From the sequence record PP526765: DNA of 64,000 bases. One strand, 5' to 3'. A program made the translations under genes and the position numbers. Each line of letters starts with the position of its first letter. Position 1 is the first letter of the stretch. The notes beneath the pieces are model-generated. The model saw only the letters and a list, made by a program, of their open reading frames with translations. It had not been told where the DNA came from and did not search any database. This DNA comes from Escherichia phage HK3. Positions 3,705 through 63,593 of the stretch are shown one piece after another.

Positions 3705-3733
3705 AGAAAATAAAAAAGGCTCCCGAAGGAGCC
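3705..3733 (-). terminator. rho-independent terminator downstream of endolysin gene
   Basis: minus-strand hairpin GGCTCC-TTCG-GGAGCC (3718-3733) followed by T7 run (plus-strand A run 3711-3717). Confidence 0.7.
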
Positions 3734-3743
3734 TATGAAGATA

Positions 3744-6315: not shown

Positions 6316-6344
6316 TTGACAAAGTACTTGACAAGGTGTAGGCT
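6316..6344 (+). promoter_or_regulatory. candidate promoter with conserved spacer motif (TTGACA-17-TAGGCT)
   Basis: TTGACA 6316-6321; 17-nt spacer AAGTACTTGACAAGGTG contains 13-mer ACTTGACAAGGTG also found at 48275 and 63533. Confidence 0.45.
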
Positions 6345-6465: not shown

Positions 6466-6837
6466 ATGAAAAACAGAACAAACAAAGGCCAGTTTAAAAA
6501 AGGCCAGTCTGGAAACCCATCTGGAAGACCAAAAGGCTCTCGTAACAAAAGCTCACTTGTAAAAGCTCAACTGACCATTGATAATTCTGCTGAGTTCGCT
6601 GCAAAGCTGTTTGAGGCGATTGTTACAAGGGACGCGGCTAAGCTTGCAGAGTTCGGTTTGACGACTGACGATGTAAACCTGAAGTCAATGATGGAAGCTG
6701 GTAAAACTATCATGACCCACTCAGCAGGTGAGATGAAAGCCATTGCAGCAGACACTAAGAAGACTCCTGATAATGGTGGTCAACAACAGACAGATAACAA
6801 ACCAACGTTCTCTGCTGTAGCGACTCTCAAAAAATAA
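6466..6837 (+). CDS. hypothetical protein with GNPxGRPKG motif
   Basis: 123 aa; N-terminal GNPSGRPKGSRN motif I recall from a phage/plasmid family of unknown function. Confidence 0.5.
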   Translation: MKNRTNKGQFKKGQSGNPSGRPKGSRNKSSLVKAQLTIDNSAEFAAKLFEAIVTRDAAKLAEFGLTTDDVNLKSMMEAGKTIMTHSAGEMKAIAADTKKTPDNGGQQQTDNKPTFSAVATLKK

Positions 6838-6849
6838 TTTTAAAAGGTG

Positions 6850-6879
6850 TTGACAGACTCTACAAAGTTGCTCTAAAGT
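6850..6879 (+). promoter_or_regulatory. sigma70-like promoter (TTGACA-18-TAAAGT) inside inverted repeat
   Basis: TTGACA 6850-6855, TAAAGT 6874-6879; inverted repeat GACAGACT (6852-6859) / AGTCTGTC (6877-6884). Confidence 0.5.
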
Positions 6880-6916
6880 CTGTCACATCAAACAAAATGA
6901 GAGAAGAGAGTAAAAT

Positions 6917-8332
6917 ATGAGCAAGTTATTTAAACATGCGCACCTTCATGCAGGTCGAACTGAAAATGGTGCTGTAAACCATACTTCATCAATGTCTGCT
7001 CTGGTAGACTTCTACAAAGCCGCTGGTTCAAGCCGTAGCAATGTAGAAATCTTACCAGACCTGTTCTACAAAGCTTTGCGTGAGGATGTTGATGTTGCAG
7101 TTCGTATTTTACTGCATATGCGAGATGTACGAGAAGGTATGGGCGAGCGTAAAGCTTTCCGAACTGTTTTGCTTCAAGCGATTGAAGATAAGGTTTTAGA
7201 ACCTACACAGGTTCTTCGCATTATGGATAAGATTGCAGAACTTGGTCGTTTTGATGACTTCAAAATCTTTGTAGGTACTCGTTTTGAGACAGACGCCTTC
7301 AAACATTTAGAAGCAGCATTACTAGACCCTGCAACAGCAGGTTTAGCAGCTAAGTGGTTGCCACGAGTAAAACCACGCCACAAACAGTTTGTAAAACGTT
7401 TCTGCAAGTTTGCAAACTTAAGTGAGAAGGAGTATCGCACACTGTTGTCTGCACTATCTGATACGGTTGAGCAAAAAATCTCTGCTAATGAGTTTGGTAA
7501 GATTGACTACAGCAAGATTCCTTCACTAGCTGCTGCACGTTACCAAAAACTCTTTAACCGTAAAGATGGTGAACGTTACAAAGCTTACATCGAGTCGCTC
7601 TCAAAGGGTGAGGCTAAGATTAATGCTGGTGCTGTTTACCCATACGATGTGATTAAATCTATTAAGTATGGTAATGCAGATGTTGCTAATGAGCAGTGGA
7701 AAGCACTTCCAAACTGGATGGCAGAAGGTGAAAACATCTTGTGTATGACTGATGTTTCAAGCTCAATGTCTTGGGTGAATCTTGGTTCAATCACTGCCCT
7801 TGATATTGGTGTATCACTTGCTTTGTATGTAGCAGAACGCAATACTGGTTGCTTTAAAGATGAGTTAATGGTTTACTCAACAAACCCTCACTTCATTGAA
7901 CTGAGTGGTGATTTACGAAACCGTCATCGTCAGGTGATGCGTCACGTTGAATATGGCTCAACTAACTTACAAGCAGCTTTTGACCGTATTCTTGAAATAG
8001 GTAAGAGAAACAACTTGACTCAGAAAGATATGCCAAGTAAGCTTATTATCTTCTCTGATATGGAGTTTAATCAGGTTGATGGTGCAAATGGTCATACAAA
8101 CTTTGAAGCAATTCAGAGTAAGTACAAAAAAGCCGGATACGAAATGCCACAACTAGTATTCTGGTACTTAGCAAACCGTAATGGTACTTGCGAAGTATCT
8201 GTTAAGGATAATGGTGTAGCAATGGTATCAGGGTTCTCTCCAGCCACTTTAAAAGCTCTACTTGGTGGTGAGAAGTTTGACCCAATCAGCGTAATGCTCA
8301 AAGCAGTAATGATTGACCGTTATATCTGGTAA
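6917..8332 (+). CDS. vWA-domain protein with Ro60-like architecture (alpha-helical N-domain + C-terminal vWA)
   Basis: 471 aa; MIDAS-like DVSSSMS ... GSTN ... IIFSDME in C-terminal half; helical N-terminal about 270 aa; lies immediately upstream of tRNA array. Confidence 0.6.
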   Translation: MSKLFKHAHLHAGRTENGAVNHTSSMSALVDFYKAAGSSRSNVEILPDLFYKALREDVDVAVRILLHMRDVREGMGERKAFRTVLLQAIEDKVLEPTQVLRIMDKIAELGRFDDFKIFVGTRFETDAFKHLEAALLDPATAGLAAKWLPRVKPRHKQFVKRFCKFANLSEKEYRTLLSALSDTVEQKISANEFGKIDYSKIPSLAAARYQKLFNRKDGERYKAYIESLSKGEAKINAGAVYPYDVIKSIKYGNADVANEQWKALPNWMAEGENILCMTDVSSSMSWVNLGSITALDIGVSLALYVAERNTGCFKDELMVYSTNPHFIELSGDLRNRHRQVMRHVEYGSTNLQAAFDRILEIGKRNNLTQKDMPSKLIIFSDMEFNQVDGANGHTNFEAIQSKYKKAGYEMPQLVFWYLANRNGTCEVSVKDNGVAMVSGFSPATLKALLGGEKFDPISVMLKAVMIDRYIW

Positions 8333-8350
8333 AAAGTTTTAAAAAGGGTA

Positions 8351-8379
8351 TTGACAATGTGTTTGATACCCTTTAATAT
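8351..8379 (+). promoter_or_regulatory. sigma70-like promoter (TTGACA-17-TAATAT) for tRNA array
   Basis: consensus -35 and near-consensus -10 with 17-nt spacer; flanked by inverted repeat AAGGGTAT / ATACCCTT. Confidence 0.65.
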
Positions 8380-8442
8380 GTTCTACATAGAAACGAGATG
8401 AGAGCTTTTCTAAGATACTGAAAAATATTTTAAAAAAGTTCT

Positions 8443-8471
8443 TGACAACCACTAAAAAATAATGTTAAAGT
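8443..8471 (+). promoter_or_regulatory. sigma70-like promoter (TTGACA-17-TAAAGT)
   Basis: TTGACA 8443-8448, TAAAGT 8466-8471; overlapping hairpin CCACT...AGTGG. Confidence 0.5.
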
Positions 8472-8497
8472 GGTTACATAGAGTTTGAAAAGTTTAT

Positions 8498-9058: not shown

Positions 9059-9145
9059 GTGTCGTTATCCCGTAGATGGTAGCGGTGGGGACTGTAAATC
9101 CCTTGTCATTGAGACTCGGTAGGTTCGACTCCTACACGGCACACC
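9059..9145 (+). tRNA. tRNA-Tyr (anticodon GUA), long variable arm
   Basis: manual fold: acceptor GTGTCGT/ACGGCAC, anticodon stem GGGGA/TCCCT loop CTGTAAA, 15-nt variable arm, T-arm GTAGG-TTCGACT-CCTAC, CCA. Confidence 0.7.
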
Positions 9146-9207
9146 AATTTTGAGAGGGCTATTTAGCCCCTCCCTTAAAGAGTTCTTACGAGTACCCTTT
9201 AAAGGAG

Positions 9208-9281
9208 CAGAAGACCAAATACAGCAAGTTACTTAAAATTTCAAGCCAATTCAATTTTGAAAAATTTAAAACTTGGTCTGG
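9208..9281 (+). ncRNA. inter-tRNA structured element c
   Basis: 5' CAGAAGACCAAATACAGCAA ... 3' TTGGTCTGG; same terminal helix. Confidence 0.45.
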
Positions 9282-9811: not shown

Positions 9812-9826
9812 ATTTCAATAAAGTTG

Positions 9827-9855
9827 TTGACATTGAGATGTGACCACTTTATAGT
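9827..9855 (+). promoter_or_regulatory. sigma70-like promoter (TTGACA-17-TATAGT) internal to tRNA region
   Basis: TTGACA 9827-9832, TATAGT 9850-9855. Confidence 0.6.
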
Positions 9856-10058
9856 AACCTTAGTTTTCGTTGCGTAGCGTCTATTTTGCAAATTTAAAAT
9901 AAATGCAAACGACAATGTTTTTCTGGCAGTAGCTTGATAGGCTAAACACCAGTGAGGTCTTCCAATCCCTCATCAAAGAATTTGGCGTACTAGCCCACGG
10001 TATGATTAATAAGGTGGGCATCTTTAAGGGTTTTTTAAGAGAGTCTTTAAAGATTAAT

Positions 10059-10135
10059 GCACCCTTAGTTCAACTGGACAGAACAAATGACTTCTAATCA
10101 TTAGGTTACAGGTTCGAATCCTGTAGGGTGTGCCA
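10059..10135 (+). tRNA. tRNA-Arg (anticodon UCU)
   Basis: manual fold: acceptor GCACCCT/AGGGTGT, D-arm GTTC-AACTGGACA-GAAC, anticodon stem AATGA/TCATT loop CTTCTAA, T-arm ACAGG-TTCGAAT-CCTGT, CCA. Confidence 0.8.
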
Positions 10136-11219: not shown

Positions 11220-11294
11220 ACTCGCTTAGTTTATATGGTAAAACACCACCCTTACAAGATGAAGAAAAAGGTTCAAGTCCTTTAGTGAGTACCA
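11220..11294 (+). tRNA. tRNA-like gene, possible tRNA-Val (anticodon UAC); weak anticodon stem
   Basis: acceptor ACTCGCT/AGTGAGT, D-arm GTTT-ATATGGTA-AAAC, T-arm AAAGG-TTCAAGT-CCTTT, CCA; anticodon stem only 3/5 paired. Confidence 0.4.
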
Positions 11295-11295
11295 T

Positions 11296-11373
11296 GTTCC
11301 AATATCCCAATTGGCAGAGGATGCAAGCTCAAACCTTGTACTAGTGACGGTTCGAATCCGTCTTGGAACACCA
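11296..11373 (+). tRNA. tRNA with anticodon CAA (Leu by code) but short variable arm
   Basis: manual fold: acceptor GTTCCAA/TTGGAAC, Leu-like D-loop AATTGGCAGAG, anticodon stem GCAAG/CTTGT loop CTCAAAC, 6-nt variable loop, T-arm GACGG-TTCGAAT-CCGTC, A73, CCA. Confidence 0.55.
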
Positions 11374-11582: not shown

Positions 11583-12140
11583 ATGAGATATTTGAAGTAT
11601 GCTTCATGGATTTTCCTAGCTTTGTTAGACCCATTGGCAGCAACCTTAGCAGTTATCTTAGCACCTTTTGTAGTTCCATTCTACAGTGAGAAGAAAGGGC
11701 ACTTACCTTTCGGCTTCAGATGGATGGAGACATATGACAACCCAATTGATGGTGATAAAGGTCATGTTGAACGATGGGCTAAGATTAGAAAGATTGGTAA
11801 GCTTGGTGTCTATATGCAGAGAGTCGGTTGGCTCTGGAGAAACAAAGCTTATAACTTCTCTTACCATGTGTTAGGAAGAGATGTAAAAGATGTTACTAAG
11901 TGGAAAGGTAATATCAACGTAAGCTCTGACCCTGAAGATAATCAGACAGGTTATCTCCTAATGTGGAACAGTAATGCTTGGGGATTATTCGCTTTTATCC
12001 CATCAATTAAAGTCTTTGGTAAACAATTCTACTGGAGAATTTATATTGGGTGGAAACTAAAAAGTGTTGTCCCAGAAGAAAGAGCATTCTCAAGGGAAAG
12101 AGTTATGTTGGCATTCTTTATTCATCCACTGAGAAAGTAA
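11583..12140 (+). CDS. hypothetical membrane-anchored protein embedded in tRNA array
   Basis: 185 aa, ATG with AAGAGG upstream; N-terminal hydrophobic segment ASWIFLALLDPLAATLAVILAPFVVPF. Confidence 0.5.
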   Translation: MRYLKYASWIFLALLDPLAATLAVILAPFVVPFYSEKKGHLPFGFRWMETYDNPIDGDKGHVERWAKIRKIGKLGVYMQRVGWLWRNKAYNFSYHVLGRDVKDVTKWKGNINVSSDPEDNQTGYLLMWNSNAWGLFAFIPSIKVFGKQFYWRIYIGWKLKSVVPEERAFSRERVMLAFFIHPLRK

Positions 12141-12417: not shown

Positions 12418-12493
12418 GTGGCCTTATCATAAACGGTAATGACCCATGCTGTGAACATGGTCTATACGGGTTCAAATCCCGTAGGTCACCCCA
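12418..12493 (+). tRNA. tRNA-His (anticodon GUG)
   Basis: manual fold: acceptor GTGGCCT/AGGTCAC, D-arm TCAT-AAACGGTA-ATGA, anticodon stem CCATG/CATGG loop CTGTGAA, T-arm ACGGG-TTCAAAT-CCCGT, C73, CCA. Confidence 0.75.
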
Positions 12494-13597: not shown

Positions 13598-13662
13598 ACA
13601 GAGTTATACTTTATAAGAAGACTTATACAGTATGTCTCTGACGTACATTGTGGTTTCTCCTT

Positions 13663-13686
13663 GACGGTCTCTGTACCGTCTTTTTT
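13663..13686 (+). terminator. rho-independent terminator
   Basis: GACGGT-CTCTGT-ACCGTC followed by TTTTTT. Confidence 0.6.
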
Positions 13687-13722
13687 AAGGAGAAACATGG
13701 TTAATTATTTGGAGAAAACATA

Positions 13723-13923
13723 ATGAGCGAGACCGTTTATAAAGAACTTTATGAAGCCAATAAAAAGCTGGAATTTATGCAGACTACTATTATGGCAATT
13801 GCAGACAGATTGTCTGTAGCAACAGGTATTGATATCAAAGAAGCCTCTATGGATGCACTTCTTGATGCTGTTGATGCAAAGTTCGAAGTTAAGAAAGAAG
13901 AGACTGCTACAGACTCTGAATAA
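13723..13923 (+). CDS. hypothetical small protein preceding large terminase
   Basis: 66 aa, ATG with GGAG RBS; position compatible with small terminase but too short to assert. Confidence 0.4.
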   Translation: MSETVYKELYEANKKLEFMQTTIMAIADRLSVATGIDIKEASMDALLDAVDAKFEVKKEETATDSE

Positions 13924-36981: not shown

Positions 36982-37010
36982 TTGACTGATTGTTAAGATG
37001 GTGTTAATAT
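36982..37010 (+). promoter_or_regulatory. sigma70-like promoter (TTGACT-17-TAATAT) flanked by inverted repeat
   Basis: TTGACT 36982-36987, TAATAT 37005-37010; 9-bp inverted repeat AAGATGGTG (36995-37003) / CACCATCTT (37027-37035). Confidence 0.55.
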
Positions 37011-37053
37011 TCTTTATGGGTATTCTCACCATCTTGGCTGATGAGGTGATTAA

Positions 37054-37251
37054 ATGCCTACAATCCTAGCAATTATTCTAAAAAATCTAGGTAGCTTCTT
37101 CTGGAAACTCATTTTATCCCTTCTAAGTGAATACATGATTGAGAAAGTGTTCTTTAGGCTTGCAAGATACCTTGCTAGTAAAACAGACACACCTATTGAT
37201 GATGAGTTCGTAGATAACTTAGAAAAAGCTTTTAAGGGGGAGAATAAATGA
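37054..37251 (+). CDS. small membrane protein (holin-like candidate)
   Basis: 65 aa, single hydrophobic helix ILAIILKNLGSFFWKLILSLL. Confidence 0.4.
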   Translation: MPTILAIILKNLGSFFWKLILSLLSEYMIEKVFFRLARYLASKTDTPIDDEFVDNLEKAFKGENK

Positions 37252-37624: not shown

Positions 37625-37652
37625 AAGGCTCCTTTTTACGGGAGCCTTTTTT
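37625..37652. terminator. bidirectional terminator between convergent modules
   Basis: AAGGCTCC-TTTTTACG-GGAGCCTT with T runs on both sides; lies between + strand gene end 37619 and - strand gene end 37656. Confidence 0.7.
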
Positions 37653-40249: not shown

Positions 40250-40579
40250 TTAATCTGCCAACCTTAAATTAAAATTAACACCAAATTTTTCGCATACTTC
40301 CAACATAAACTCAAGAGAGACATTACCAGTGAGATTGATTATGTTGGATACACGAGCCTGAGAGATACCACAAATTTTAGCAACTTGCTCTTGAGAAAGA
40401 CCTCTGGATTTAATCTCTCTCTTAAAACGATGTGCAACGAAGTCTCTCATTTCGTCTACATCCATTGGACAAATATAACTCTCCATTTCAGCCTCTCTGT
40501 CAGCCTCCCAATCATCTTGTGGAGCATAAGGGTCAAAAACCTCATTCATCTTTCTTCTTCCGTTTGCGTGAAGTGTCAA
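40250..40579 (-). CDS. HTH (XRE-type) transcriptional regulator
   Basis: GLSQEQVAKICGISQARVSNI helix-turn-helix signature in C-terminal half. Confidence 0.6.
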   Translation of the reverse strand: MTLHANGRRKMNEVFDPYAPQDDWEADREAEMESYICPMDVDEMRDFVAHRFKREIKSRGLSQEQVAKICGISQARVSNIINLTGNVSLEFMLEVCEKFGVNFNLRLAD

Positions 40580-41139: not shown

Positions 41140-41261
41140 AATGACCTCAAAGTTATATTAAATTTTGTATTACATTGAGTATAAAAATAAGCTATAACAC
41201 CTGACTTGTCAACAGATTTTATAGCTTATTTGGCAGATTTTTTATAAGGCTACTGCCATCC

Positions 41262-41785
41262 TTCCATACCAAACCCTACCTTACCACACCATACCATACC
41301 AAACCCGACCAAACCCGACCGAGCATCGCTTAAAAATCCTCTTAGAAGACTCTTAAGTGATGTAATCGAATTTTAATGTAGCTCCGATTAACTACCCATA
41401 CCTCACCTTACTTAACCGTACCGCACAGAACCACACCAAACCTAACACCACTTCTCATCACCTTATTAAAAACCATGTTTAAAGACCTTTTAAAAAGATG
41501 AGTCTCATTTTAATGTAGATGAGACTAACTACCCACACCAGACCTAGCCTTGCCTTACCATACCGAACAATACATCACAATACATCACTTAAAAATCCTC
41601 TTAGAAGACTCTTAAGTGATGTAATCGAATTTTAATGTAGCTCCGATTAACTACCCATACCAGACCGCACCAGACAAAACCACGCCAAACCGCACCTTAC
41701 CCAACCTTACCACACCAGACCCAACCTTATTAAAAGACCATGTTTAAAGACCTTTTAAAAAGGAGCCTCCGAAGAGGCTACCTAG
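41262..41785. repeat. tandem about 260-bp repeat units (x2) with identical 74-bp cores and strand-biased CA-rich tracts
   Basis: exact 74-bp direct repeat at 41329-41402 and 41588-41661; second conserved element CCTTATTAAAA..CATGTTTAAAGACCTTTTAAAAAG at 41461-41497 and 41725-41762; tracts almost devoid of G/T. Confidence 0.8.
41756..41779 (-). terminator. rho-independent terminator downstream of 41791..42231 gene
   Basis: minus-strand hairpin AGCCTC-TTCG-GAGGCT followed by TTTTT. Confidence 0.6.
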
Positions 41786-41790
41786 TCAAC

Positions 41791-42233: not shown

Positions 42234-42839
<606 letters not shown>

Positions 42840-42915
42840 TTAGTTTATTGTTAAGTTGTTTGTAAAGAACCCTCAACAGAAGACTCTTTAGAAACTTGGT
42901 AGATTTTTAACGTGG

Positions 42916-43043
42916 CTACTACCATCCACCCATACCGCGCCAGACCCTACATTACCAGACCATACAAAGCCATACCCAACCAAACACTACCGCACCATAC
43001 CGAACATCACTTAAAAACCCTCTTAGAAGACTCTTAAGTGATG
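42916..43043. repeat. third partial copy of CA-rich tract + conserved core
   Basis: CA-rich tract 42916-43009 followed by CTTAAAAACCCTCTTAGAAGACTCTTAAGTGATG (43010-43043), one mismatch to the 41329/41588 core. Confidence 0.75.
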
Positions 43044-43108
43044 CTGGTGAGTATCCGTTGGTTTATGCTGCTCAGTATACTCACCAAATTTTCTATGTCA
43101 ACAACTTT

Positions 43109-44209
43109 TTATTCGTAGTCTCGAATAACTAACCCGACAGGGAACTGTAAAGACCCCTTACGAGTCATCTTCTGGAACTGAACCGTTAAAGGTTTCCCGA
43201 TAAACTCTTCAGGATGCTCAGCAAGGTACTGTTTTTTCTCATGAGTAGTCTTCCATGAGACATCTACAAAGACGTTAGGAAGAGTCTCTACAACGAACTT
43301 ACCATGACCACGTTTATCGGTCTTGACACCAGTCACTTTAAACTCTTCAGTGTGCATCTTCTTGTGCTTAATCAAGAAGTATGAACGGTGACAACACTCA
43401 TAGAAGGAGTCTTCAGAGATTGAACGGTACATTGCACCTTCAAACTTAGCTTCAACCCACTTATCATGAGCTTCATCAAACTCTTCCCAAGAATTTACAC
43501 GACGAGATTTAACAGGAACAACTTTACAGCCATCTCTAAAGTCATTCAATGGTGAAGTCTCAATAATATCTCTACGCTCAGGCCACGTCTTAGTACTGTC
43601 ACAGATATCATACCAGTAGAACTGGAGTAGATGTCGGTCTGGATTGTCAGCATTCTTAATCATAGACACAATATCTTCTAAGTCCCAACCATGAGCATAA
43701 ATCTCACCATCAAAGTCTTCGACTTGTGGATGTAATTTAAGCAACAAAAGCAAATCTGGGATTAGTTCTGCTGGGACGTTGTAAACAGTATTCTCACGAG
43801 AATAAGCCGTGAAACTAACTGAATCAGCGTCTCTTGAAATTCTACAACGTACACCATCCAGTTTCGGTTGAGCATCAGCAGGGAATATCAAATACTTTGC
43901 ATGACTAACCTTTGCAGCATCATGAGCAAGCTGTACACCTACCTTCTCAGTATTCTGTGCAGACTCTTTTGTGTAAGCATAACCCTTGCGGTCAACTTGC
44001 TTTTTATACTTAGCAGCAACTTCAAAGAGGGCTTGCTGTTCAGCGTTACGCTCATTCTTTTTACCGATGTTCTTAGGCTCTGCTGTATACTCTTCAAACA
44101 TCATCTTGCCATTCTCTTTACCATAGGTTGTAATAACTTTGTCACCTACAGCAACGCATGACCAGACATTGAAAGAACCATCTTTATTTTGTTTGTACAG
44201 AATTGTCAT
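43109..44209 (-). CDS. ATP-dependent DNA ligase
   Basis: adenylation motif KLDGVRC (KxDGxR), FDGEIY, EGAMYR; 366 aa as in T7-type ligases. Confidence 0.8.
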   Translation of the reverse strand: MTILYKQNKDGSFNVWSCVAVGDKVITTYGKENGKMMFEEYTAEPKNIGKKNERNAEQQALFEVAAKYKKQVDRKGYAYTKESAQNTEKVGVQLAHDAAKVSHAKYLIFPADAQPKLDGVRCRISRDADSVSFTAYSRENTVYNVPAELIPDLLLLLKLHPQVEDFDGEIYAHGWDLEDIVSMIKNADNPDRHLLQFYWYDICDSTKTWPERRDIIETSPLNDFRDGCKVVPVKSRRVNSWEEFDEAHDKWVEAKFEGAMYRSISEDSFYECCHRSYFLIKHKKMHTEEFKVTGVKTDKRGHGKFVVETLPNVFVDVSWKTTHEKKQYLAEHPEEFIGKPLTVQFQKMTRKGSLQFPVGLVIRDYE

Positions 44210-44640: not shown

Positions 44641-44701
44641 ATGACCTCCTATACAAGATATAGTATAAGGTACTCTTCCATGAGCACCTTGTCAATACTA
44701 A

Positions 44702-48264: not shown

Positions 48265-48293
48265 TTGACAATGCACTTGACAAGGTGTTAATC
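48265..48293 (+). promoter_or_regulatory. candidate promoter with conserved spacer motif
   Basis: TTGACA 48265-48270 + spacer ATGCACTTGACAAGGTG (13-mer ACTTGACAAGGTG at 48275-48287) + TTAATC. Confidence 0.4.
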
Positions 48294-52678: not shown

Positions 52679-52930
52679 TAGTTATAAAAGAGAGGGGTTC
52701 ATACCCTTCTTTGAAGAAAAAAGTTTAAATAAATTTCATGAAGAGTGTTTGACAAAGGTTGATAGGTTCTATAGAATGCTCCACATGAAATGCAATGGGG
52801 GAGTTGAGATAGAACAAGATTTCCACCAGAGCATGATTACGGTCATCATTGCGCTACCTCAGCATAATATTAGTTGGCTGTTTATAATTAAAGAAAATGT
52901 GTTTGAATATCAAGTATATCGGAGAATATC

Positions 52931-53087: not shown

Positions 53088-53116
53088 TTGACAATAGAGT
53101 ATCAACAAATTAGAAT
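53088..53116 (+). promoter_or_regulatory. sigma70-like promoter (TTGACA-17-TAGAAT)
   Basis: TTGACA 53088-53093, TAGAAT 53111-53116. Confidence 0.6.
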
Positions 53117-53152
53117 TGGTACTCTTCATAAATTGAGATAGAGGTTTAAATA

Positions 53153-63532: not shown

Positions 63533-63578
63533 ACTTGACAAGGTGATGTGGGTCTTGATAGGCTTACATCACCTTTTT
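63533..63578 (+). terminator. terminator hairpin after nrdD overlapping conserved 13-mer
   Basis: ACTTGACAAGGTG at 63533-63545; hairpin GGTGATGT (63542-63549) / ACATCACC (63566-63573) followed by TTTTT. Confidence 0.55.
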
Positions 63579-63593
63579 ATTTGGAGTTGCATC

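Follow-up and report, generated by a model that had tools for sequence, protein, structure and literature searches.

Promoters enclosed by inverted repeats in Escherichia phage HK3: candidate promoter/stem-loop cassettes at gene junctions of a Felix O1-like phage

The stretch of DNA considered here, 64,000 nucleotides (nt) of Escherichia phage HK3 from sequence record PP526765 and hereafter called the window, contains a series of sigma70-type promoters whose -35 and -10 hexamers are overlapped or bracketed by inverted repeats (IRs). The window represents 64 kb of a Felix O1-like myophage of the genus Felixounavirus, subfamily Ounavirinae. Its G+C content is 39%, and over 3.5 kb it is 96-97% identical to Salmonella phage BPSELC-1, Escherichia phage Alf5 and about 250 further records. 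The gene order is that of Alf5, with a minus-strand block extending to ~6.2 kb and a plus-strand block starting at 6466, in which a DUF5681 gene is followed by a 471-aa DUF2828/VWA 'RNA-binding' gene, 25 tRNA genes and structural genes up to 37.6 kb. The replication and nucleotide block occupies the minus strand from 37.7 to 48.2 kb, and another plus-strand block begins at 48.5 kb.

Promoters and inverted repeats in the window

The original prediction, made from the letters of the sequence, had singled out four places (P1 to P4) at which a good -35/-10 pair coincides with a short IR. Direct reading and scans located all four exactly where they had been placed, each as a promoter of the type TTGACA-N17/18-TAnnnT overlapped by an IR of 7-9 bp. 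Further cassettes were collected from a list of perfect repeats of at least 8 bp and from folding of every intergenic gap; these comprise four clear cases, P5, P6, P44 and P8, and two weak ones, a site at 63536 and a 7-bp case at 9827. The sites are given below by coordinates and strand.

6846..6889, plus strand: P1 cassette, with TTGACA at 6850-6855, an 18-nt spacer and TAAAGT at 6874-6879; core IR of 9 bp, TGACAGACT at 6851-6859 and AGTCTGTCA at 6877-6885, with an outer extension GGTGT / ACATC.
8343..8379, plus strand: P2 cassette, with TTGACA at 8351-8356, a 17-nt spacer and TAATAT at 8374-8379; IR of 9 bp, AAAGGGTAT at 8343-8351 and ATACCCTTT at 8366-8374, with a flanking A-tract and T-rich tail.
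8442..8475, plus strand: P3 cassette, with TTGACA at 8442-8447, an 18-nt spacer and TAAAGT at 8466-8471; IR of 7 bp, AACCACT at 8447-8453 and AGTGGTT at 8469-8475, the weakest of the four sites first noted.
9818..9855, plus strand: the 9827 promoter, with TTGACA at 9827-9832, a 17-nt spacer and TATAGT at 9850-9855.
36982..37038, plus strand: P4 cassette, with TTGACT at 36982-36987, a 17-nt spacer and TAATAT at 37005-37010; IR of 9 bp, AAGATGGTG at 36995-37003 and CACCATCTT at 37027-37035, which G.U pairs extend to a 12 + 7 bp hairpin.
41184..41231, minus strand: P5 cassette, with TTGACA at 41212-41207, a 17-nt spacer and TATTTT at 41189-41184; perfect IR of 13 bp, 41219-41231 / 41185-41197, bracketing the promoter.
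43045..43101, minus strand: P6 cassette, with TTGACA at 43101-43096, a 16-nt spacer and TATACT at 43079-43074; IR of 10 bp, 43077-43086 / 43045-43054, covering the -10 hexamer and the first ~20 transcribed nt.
44667..44695, minus strand: P44 cassette, with TTGACA at 44695-44690, then the hairpin, then TATACT; hairpin AAGGTGCTC-ATGGAA-GAGTACCTT at 44690-44667, 9 bp including one G.U.
53088..53125, plus strand: P8 cassette, with TTGACA at 53088-53093, a 17-nt spacer and TAGAAT at 53111-53116; hairpin of 9 bp including one U.G, 53096-53104 (in the spacer) / 53117-53125 (just past the -10), with the -10 in the loop.
63536..63583, plus strand: a further candidate, with TTGACA at 63536-63541, an 18-nt spacer and TAGGCT; IR of 10 bp, 63540-63549 / 63566-63575, then TTTTATTT, terminator-like, after the first nrdD-like fragment.

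A perfect TTGACA is present in seven of the eight main cassettes, the exception being P4 (TTGACT), and the -10 hexamer is TAnnnT; P44 offers two candidates for it, TACCTT at 17 nt and TATACT at 22 nt. P1, P2 and P3 have an A/T-rich tract, TTTTAAAA(A/G), at a distance of 3-6 nt upstream of their -35; at P1 it is UP-like, and the promoter is enclosed by the hairpin. AAAAAG precedes P6 and ATAAAA precedes P5, and the upstream sequences of P4, P8 and P44 are less A/T-rich. Hairpin placement varies as well. At P1, P2, P3 and P5 the arms lie on the -35/UP region and on the -10, at P8, P6 and P4 the hairpin runs from the spacer to just past the -10, and at P44 it occupies the spacer. The P4 hairpin has two tiers, an outer stem (36992-37003 / 37027-37038) and an inner stem (37006-37012 / 37018-37024) that contains the -10. 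No promoter of the window matches the consensus better than the 9827 site, which corresponds to P45 of the Felix O1 genome paper (PMC3185647); its IR is a weak, A/T-rich one of 7 bp (9818-9824 / 9846-9852), and the site is not convincing as a hairpin. A look-alike at 52749, which combines an 8-bp IR with a good promoter-like match, was rejected as a chance occurrence: it lies in coding sequence, and most relatives have a T to G change that disrupts its IR.

Every IR-bearing promoter except P3 and P5 follows a co-directional gene, and the hairpin starts 9-23 nt past the stop codon. That of P1 begins 9 nt past the stop of the DUF5681 gene (6466-6837), ahead of the start of the 471-aa gene at 6917, and that of P2 begins 11 nt past the stop of the latter (8332). 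P4 follows the tail-fibre gene (stop 36974) and precedes an open reading frame (ORF) of 65 aa that starts at 37054, and P6 comes directly after the DNA ligase stop codon (43109). The hairpins of P3 and P5 follow non-coding DNA, namely the short leader of P2 and the stretch 41232-41790, respectively; P3 precedes tRNA-Pro, with which the array of 25 tRNAs opens, by 23 nt, and P5 heads a minus-strand operon containing a gene for an XRE-type helix-turn-helix (HTH) protein. In the two divergent intergenic regions, the three promoters (6290 on the minus strand, 6316 and 48265 on the plus strand) have stems of at most 5 bp.

One peculiarity was seen at P1 and at no other cassette. Its dyad creates a mirror promoter-like site on the minus strand (6857-6886, GTGACA-N18-TAGAGT, 9 of 12 matches), which would read antisense into the end of the DUF5681 gene.

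Chance expectation and conservation among relatives

For a test against chance, promoters were defined independently of any IR, by a -35 hexamer with at most one mismatch, a spacer of 16-18 nt, a TAnnnT hexamer and a position in an intergenic gap on the coding strand, which gave 14 sites in the window. In five of these, the promoter core is overlapped by a perfect Watson-Crick stem of 9 bp or more. When the positions outside the hexamers were shuffled, the mean number of such promoters was 0.17, and none of 400 shuffles reached five. The same test applied to the whole Alf5 genome found stems of at least 8 bp in 7 of 20 promoters against 0.70 expected (0 of 300 shuffles reached seven). Region folds are clearly unusual only for P4 (dG -23.7 kcal/mol, z = -5.1), P2 (z = -3.5) and P6 (z = -3.0), and the fold energy of the P5 region is unremarkable. 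By themselves, z-scores of the minimum free energy of the region are unconvincing for P3, P5 and the 9827 site; the argument rests on the stem-length statistic and on comparative data.

Homologous regions were obtained from about 30 IMG/VR genomes and 15 metagenome contigs, including a clade at ~85-90% identity; the metagenome scan contributed only ~15 close relatives. Intermediate homologues of P1-P3 were sought through the 471-aa gene, and none was found between 84% identity and the 46% seen in unrelated phages. In the relatives overall, the hexamers, their spacing and the stems are kept, and the loops, spacer sequence and flanks diverge. Conservation in relatives was one of the points on which the original prediction had staked its repeats, and on this point it holds: stems are conserved where loops are not.

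The individual cassettes display this pattern to different degrees. The P1 consensus from 11 distinct relatives contains 13 pairs around a divergent loop, with G.U substitutions at two core pairs (A-U to G.U and C-G to U.G) and three pair types at one outer pair. For P4, 13 distinct relatives yield 19 pairs, with C-G / U-A compensation at the innermost; changes from U.G to C-G also occur. The P8 consensus (10 distinct relatives) has seven pairs, none of them broken, with one compensatory pair (G-C in six, A-U in four) and one U.G / C-G pair; here the -35, the spacing and a -10 of the form TAnnAT are conserved and the loop is divergent. The innermost pair of P6 is U-A in the window and U.G in relatives, and 10 relatives keep P44, with a single additional G.U that arises by an A to G change. 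Among ~40 relatives the P2 stem is invariant but for one U.G, around a variable loop, and the promoter and IR of P5 are identical in 18 of 18 relatives, with the downstream flank diverging right after the cassette. Variants of P3 are mostly U.G-compatible (AATCACT, AACTACT), with one break (in relative L116), and in the group at ~85% identity the P3 IR is replaced by a different one, AACACTA-N5-TAGTGTT, located in the spacer.

Substitutions of this kind have a polarity. In the Watson-Crick cores, read on the sense strand, seven polymorphic positions alternate between a Watson-Crick pair and G.U and none between a Watson-Crick pair and A.C, A.C on the sense strand being equivalent to G.U on the antisense strand. 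In each of the four alignments, the RNAalifold consensus fold has the more favourable energy on the sense strand (sense/antisense -7.5/-5.1, -22.2/-12.2 for P4, -15.4/-9.6 for P1, and -20.5/-19.6 kcal/mol). This bias of the wobbles and of the folds suggests that pairing takes place in one strand, that of sense polarity, for which RNA is the simplest candidate.

Related elements occur beyond the window. The early regions of Alf5 and of Erwinia phage phiEa21-4, which belongs to another genus, contain repeated cassettes between small ORFs (three copies in Alf5, two in phiEa21-4), in which TTTACA-N17-TAnnnT lies wholly inside a three-tier hairpin, AAAGTaCTTTAcagGGGGCTTAA...TTAAGCCCCagaTAAAGaGCTTT; the homologous cassette of the two phages shows an inter-genus compensatory change, G-C / U-A. 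The repeated Alf5 cassettes, at 8.4-12.5 kb, are G+C-rich and closer to classical promoter early stem-loops (PeSLs, discussed below) than those of the window, and phiEa21-4 also has promoters with the -10 as the loop of GAGGGG / CCCCTC. The architecture thus appears to be a trait of the lineage and not a peculiarity of the four sites first noted.

Readings of the promoter-embedded hairpins

With moderate confidence, the sites are best read as composite cassettes of the PeSL type, which would end the upstream transcript and start the next. Each would consist of a host sigma70 promoter, with a TTGACA-like -35, a spacer of 16-18 nt, a TAnnnT -10 and often an A/T-rich UP-like tract, and of an IR whose arms lie over or around both hexamers. 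Since a cassette's own transcript would start at or after the 3' arm, the hairpin is possible only in read-through RNA, and it is in transcripts running on from the upstream gene that the IRs most likely form hairpins. There the hairpin would mark the end of the upstream transcript and the embedded promoter would start the next, with both signals packed into intergenic gaps of 60-80 nt. The hairpin might attenuate read-through, shield the 3' end from exonucleases or act as a processing site. Promoter firing, action at the RNA level and the effect on the upstream transcript are what we infer from the sequence.

PeSLs have been described in the T4-like phages RB49/phi1, T4/PST and KVP40/nt-1 (Arbiol et al., 2010, PMC2839356; Comeau et al., 2014, PMC4122927). 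They combine a sigma70 promoter and an AT-rich upstream tract with a stem-loop located mostly between -35 and -10 or over the -10; both promoter and terminator activity were demonstrated by lacZ fusions for RB49, and a role as mediators of recombination was proposed (PMC2839356). The HK3 sites resemble them in the sigma70 consensus, in the AT-rich upstream tract, in a stem-loop between the hexamers or over the -10, and in their setting in a short gap between the stop of one gene and the Shine-Dalgarno (SD) sequence or start codon of the next, which is read as an end plus a restart. A further likeness may lie in mosaic junctions at cassette edges. In 18 relatives, homology breakpoints repeatedly fall at 43108-43112 (the upstream edge of P6, where four unrelated upstream flanks meet), at 44695 and 44640 (the edges of P44) and just downstream of P5; these places are also gene boundaries, the loss of an ORF enclosed by two like cassettes was demonstrated in no case, and the pattern is not distinguishable from ordinary gene-boundary mosaicism.

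There are differences as well. The present phage belongs to the Ounavirinae and is not T4-like. Each hairpin of the window is unique in sequence, whereas PeSLs form a repeated, sequence-conserved family of ~100 bp concentrated among small ORFans in hyperplastic regions; the cassettes here also flank core genes, namely those for the tail fibre and the ligase and the tRNA array. Their stems are A/U-rich with G.U pairs instead of polyG/polyC tracts, most have no U-tract, and several have arms that embrace the whole promoter, with the 5' arm on or upstream of the -35. In the HK3 cassettes, terminator activity and mini-circle formation are putative. In the literature searched, PeSLs were reported only in T4-like phages, and promoter-embedded stem-loops are undescribed for Felix O1-like phages.

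One of the cassettes is familiar under another name. The bidirectional terminators t42/t43 of Felix O1 are the homologue of P2 (Whichard et al., 2010, PMC3185647) and represent the same hairpin, GGGTAT..ATACCC with its A-tract and T-rich tail. The Felix O1 paper does not mention the TTGACA-N17-TAATAT inside t42/t43, and the other cassettes, which have no T-run, are absent from its terminator table. Combined terminator-promoter elements had been one suggestion of the original prediction; it is the closest to the reading given here and matches the published PeSL concept, with the qualification that only P2 is terminator-like by sequence (a G+C stem of 12 pairs, then a T-run).

Several observations weigh against cassettes that end and restart transcripts. 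A U-rich tail is present only at P2 and, weakly, at P5, P44 and 63536. The other hairpins are A/U-rich, with stems of 7-10 bp and loops of 12-23 nt, and would be poor intrinsic terminators; at P1, P3, P4, P6 and P8, which have loops of 12-23 nt, there are one to five U in the 12 nt past the stem. Canonical terminators form a separate class here, exemplified by 3717-3734 and 37625-37648. The folds of P3 (z = -0.8) and of the 9827 site (z = -0.35) are not significant, and P5 and P2, being nearly invariant, give no covariation signal. The strand asymmetry of the substitutions could stem partly from transition bias, and that of the folds could also result from structures derived on the sense strand. 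In phiEa21-4, stems of at least 7 bp were found in 3 of 15 promoters against 1.75 expected, which is not significant; this phage nonetheless carries short G+C hairpins around the -10. Lastly, the literature searched contained no transcript mapping (transcription start sites or RNA-seq) for Felix O1-like phages.

A bolder proposal, at present doubtful, is that the promoter-in-hairpin arrangement is a conserved design rule across the Ounavirinae, folding only in read-through RNA and working without a U-tract. Such hairpins would act as processing or 3'-protection sites, or jointly with a polymerase at the embedded promoter that blocks upstream transcription. If so, they would represent a distinct class of transcript-boundary element, unlike a terminator placed beside a promoter.

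Processing invites comparison with phage T7, in which several class II and class III promoters adjoin RNase III sites, and read-through and local mRNAs receive similar ends and a protective 3' hairpin. In both cases an RNA hairpin near a promoter, present only in read-through RNA, would give defined mRNA ends whatever the origin of the transcript. The T7 promoters, however, are those of its own RNA polymerase and its RNase III substrates are long and bulged, whereas the promoters here are of the host sigma70 type and the stems mostly short. That the HK3 hairpins are T7-like processing sites of RNase III or another endonuclease, a variant of the PeSL-type reading that differs in the role given to the hairpin, we consider unlikely. 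The lack of a U-tract at most hairpins would suit it. P4 (12 + 7 bp) and, beyond the window, the type-A cassette with its ~20 bp in three tiers form long interrupted duplexes of a sort that RNase III cuts, paired on the sense strand with G.U pairs; the duplexes of P1, P2, P3, P6 and P8, however, span only 7-13 bp with large loops and are shorter than typical substrates.

It is improbable that the repeats have no dedicated function and reflect chance complementarity of A-rich and T-rich sequence, or remnants of terminators squeezed against promoters by compaction. The intergenic DNA is indeed rich in IRs (about 19 of 67 repeats of at least 8 bp lie within 4.5 kb of gaps), P3 and 9827 are weak, and the similar repeat at 52749 in coding DNA is unconserved. 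Yet the shuffle tests of the window and of Alf5 speak against chance, the stems are mixed in composition instead of being A/T tracts, compensatory changes are found at three independent cassettes, and at P3 one IR has been swapped for a different repeat at the same promoter.

Still less probable is an effect at the level of DNA, in which cruciforms or hairpins of single-stranded DNA would make promoter strength dependent on supercoiling or create recombination hot spots that shuffle cassettes. Promoters containing an IR that acts in DNA are known from the virion RNA polymerase of phage N4, where the loops are short (~3 nt), and Horwitz and Loeb reportedly engineered a cruciform-regulated promoter with an IR in 1988; the loops of the HK3 sites measure 6-23 nt, and their pairing signal is strand-specific. 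In the rIIA-rIIB promoter of Alf5, the 18-nt spacer is one perfect G+C palindrome, as a DNA-level effect would have it, and the mosaic junctions at the edges of P5, P6 and P44 recall the recombination proposed for PeSLs (PMC2839356). But loops of 12-23 nt disfavour cruciform extrusion, and a G.T pair on one strand puts A.C on the opposite one; changes of this kind are nevertheless common and, in P4, fixed. Antisense consensus folds are weaker, and mosaic junctions of phages fall at gene boundaries anyway.

Least probable of all is the other proposal of the original prediction, which suggested that the repeats could be operators of a phage regulator and named the HTH protein at 40250-40579 as a candidate. 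A dimer bound to the two arms would then repress or activate the enclosed promoter. The IRs do cover the -35 and -10 hexamers, where repressors act and where Cro/CI-type (XRE) operators have their dyad symmetry, and an XRE HTH gene lies downstream of P5, whose invariant, perfect 13-bp IR is the longest. Such operators share a half-site consensus and a fixed spacing, whereas the arms of the eight IRs (TGACAGACT, AAAGGGTAT, AACCACT, AAGATGGTG, AAATAAGCTATAA, TGGTGAGTAT, AAGGTGCTC and AGAGTATCA) have no common half-site, are separated by 6 to 23 nt and are absent from the promoters of the divergent regions. Because they change by G.U-compatible and compensatory substitutions, the arms behave as parts of a folded single strand and not of a duplex recognised by protein. 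The HTH protein itself, of 109 aa, is an ordinary XRE-type protein (Pfam HTH_3, E = 5e-11) that nothing ties to the IR sites. The P5 half-site has 45 matches with at most three mismatches against 42.9 expected, and its only exact copies are its own two; autoregulation of P5 by the HTH protein is a minor possibility.

Neighbouring elements and meaning for Felix O1-like phages

The search for a common operator brought up a different sequence. An exact 14-mer, ACTTGACAAGGTGT, which is a doubled TTGACA motif, occurs at 6326-6339 and 48275-48288, one copy in each divergent region, with a one-mismatch copy at 63533-63546; at most two mismatches allowed, it has five matches against 0.96 expected. It marks the promoters of the divergent regions, which have no IRs, and could define a distinct promoter class or a regulator site. 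As a candidate target of the HTH protein it would be better than the IRs.

Around P5 and P6, the long non-coding stretches 41140-41790 and 42837-43108 contain (GGTNN)n arrays of 10-14 pentanucleotide units on the minus strand, detected by TRF (period 5) and by a scan of our own.

41266-41320, minus strand: (GGTNN)n array.
41398-41447, minus strand: (GGTNN)n array.
41657-41726, minus strand: (GGTNN)n array.
~42870-42990, minus strand: less regular (GGTNN)n array.

A conserved module follows each array and ends in the IR TACATCACTTAA-N19-TTAAGTGATGTA (41581-41623 and 43005-43043, with a degenerate copy at ~41330-41370). P6 would fire into one copy, and P5 comes after the last. The spacing of a triplet plus 2 nt recalls RNA sites of ring-shaped proteins such as TRAP, or origin iterons; by the same criterion, phiEa21-4 has no such arrays. 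The gap between the ligase stop and P6 is itself variable. About half of the relatives carry there one of at least three unrelated inserts of ~150 nt, which encode small ORFs, some hydrophobic (L041 2317-2493, L044 2201-2349 and L042 2348-2503, corresponding to position 43109 of the window), and the window has no insert.

Two further observations concern the plus-strand block. At 13653-13696, a 10-bp IR, GTTTCTCCTT / AAGGAGAAAC, pairs an anti-SD with the SD of the start codon at 13697, which opens an eight-codon mini-ORF just ahead of a 66-aa ORF at 13723; the IR encloses a terminator-like hairpin, GACGGTctctgtACCGTC followed by T6 (13663-13686). Located ahead of the terminase genes, this arrangement may serve as a switch, either translational or by attenuation. 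The 471-aa gene (6917-8332), which lies between P1 and P2 and directly upstream of the 25-tRNA array, matches DUF2828, DUF7788 and, weakly, VWA. Its product is labelled 'Ro-like RNA-binding protein' in many phages, and homologues with 29-46% identity occur in Vibrio, Campylobacter, Listeria, Staphylococcus and mycobacteriophages. Rfam detected only tRNAs in the window and no Y-RNA-like family.

Alf5 (L083, NC_031082) has a second repeated intergenic module, ATCAACGGGGAGGGAATGACCTTCCCCAC...CCCTTAAACTAGGAGATTC. Five small early ORFs carry it as a G+C hairpin in the 5' leader, ~35 nt ahead of their start codons.

9143-9232, 9998-10104, 11236-11326, 11669-11889 and 12421-12489 of Alf5: G+C leader hairpin module.

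Felix O1-like phages are widely used for the typing of Salmonella and E. coli, in biocontrol and in therapy. The Felix O1 genome paper (PMC3185647) reports no phage-encoded RNA polymerase and states that it is unknown by what means transcription gets past the many terminators and how its timing is regulated. The apparent fusion of many promoters to conserved hairpins of read-through RNA yields a map of where transcription units would begin and end, concrete enough to be tested, and adds promoters that earlier annotation had overlooked or labelled as terminators only. The gain is incremental, its novelty modest and the result not surprising; it should nevertheless be useful for annotating and engineering phages of this group. 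The PeSL concept would be extended past the T4-like phages, with a bearing on how gene cassettes are insulated and shuffled in compact virulent phages.

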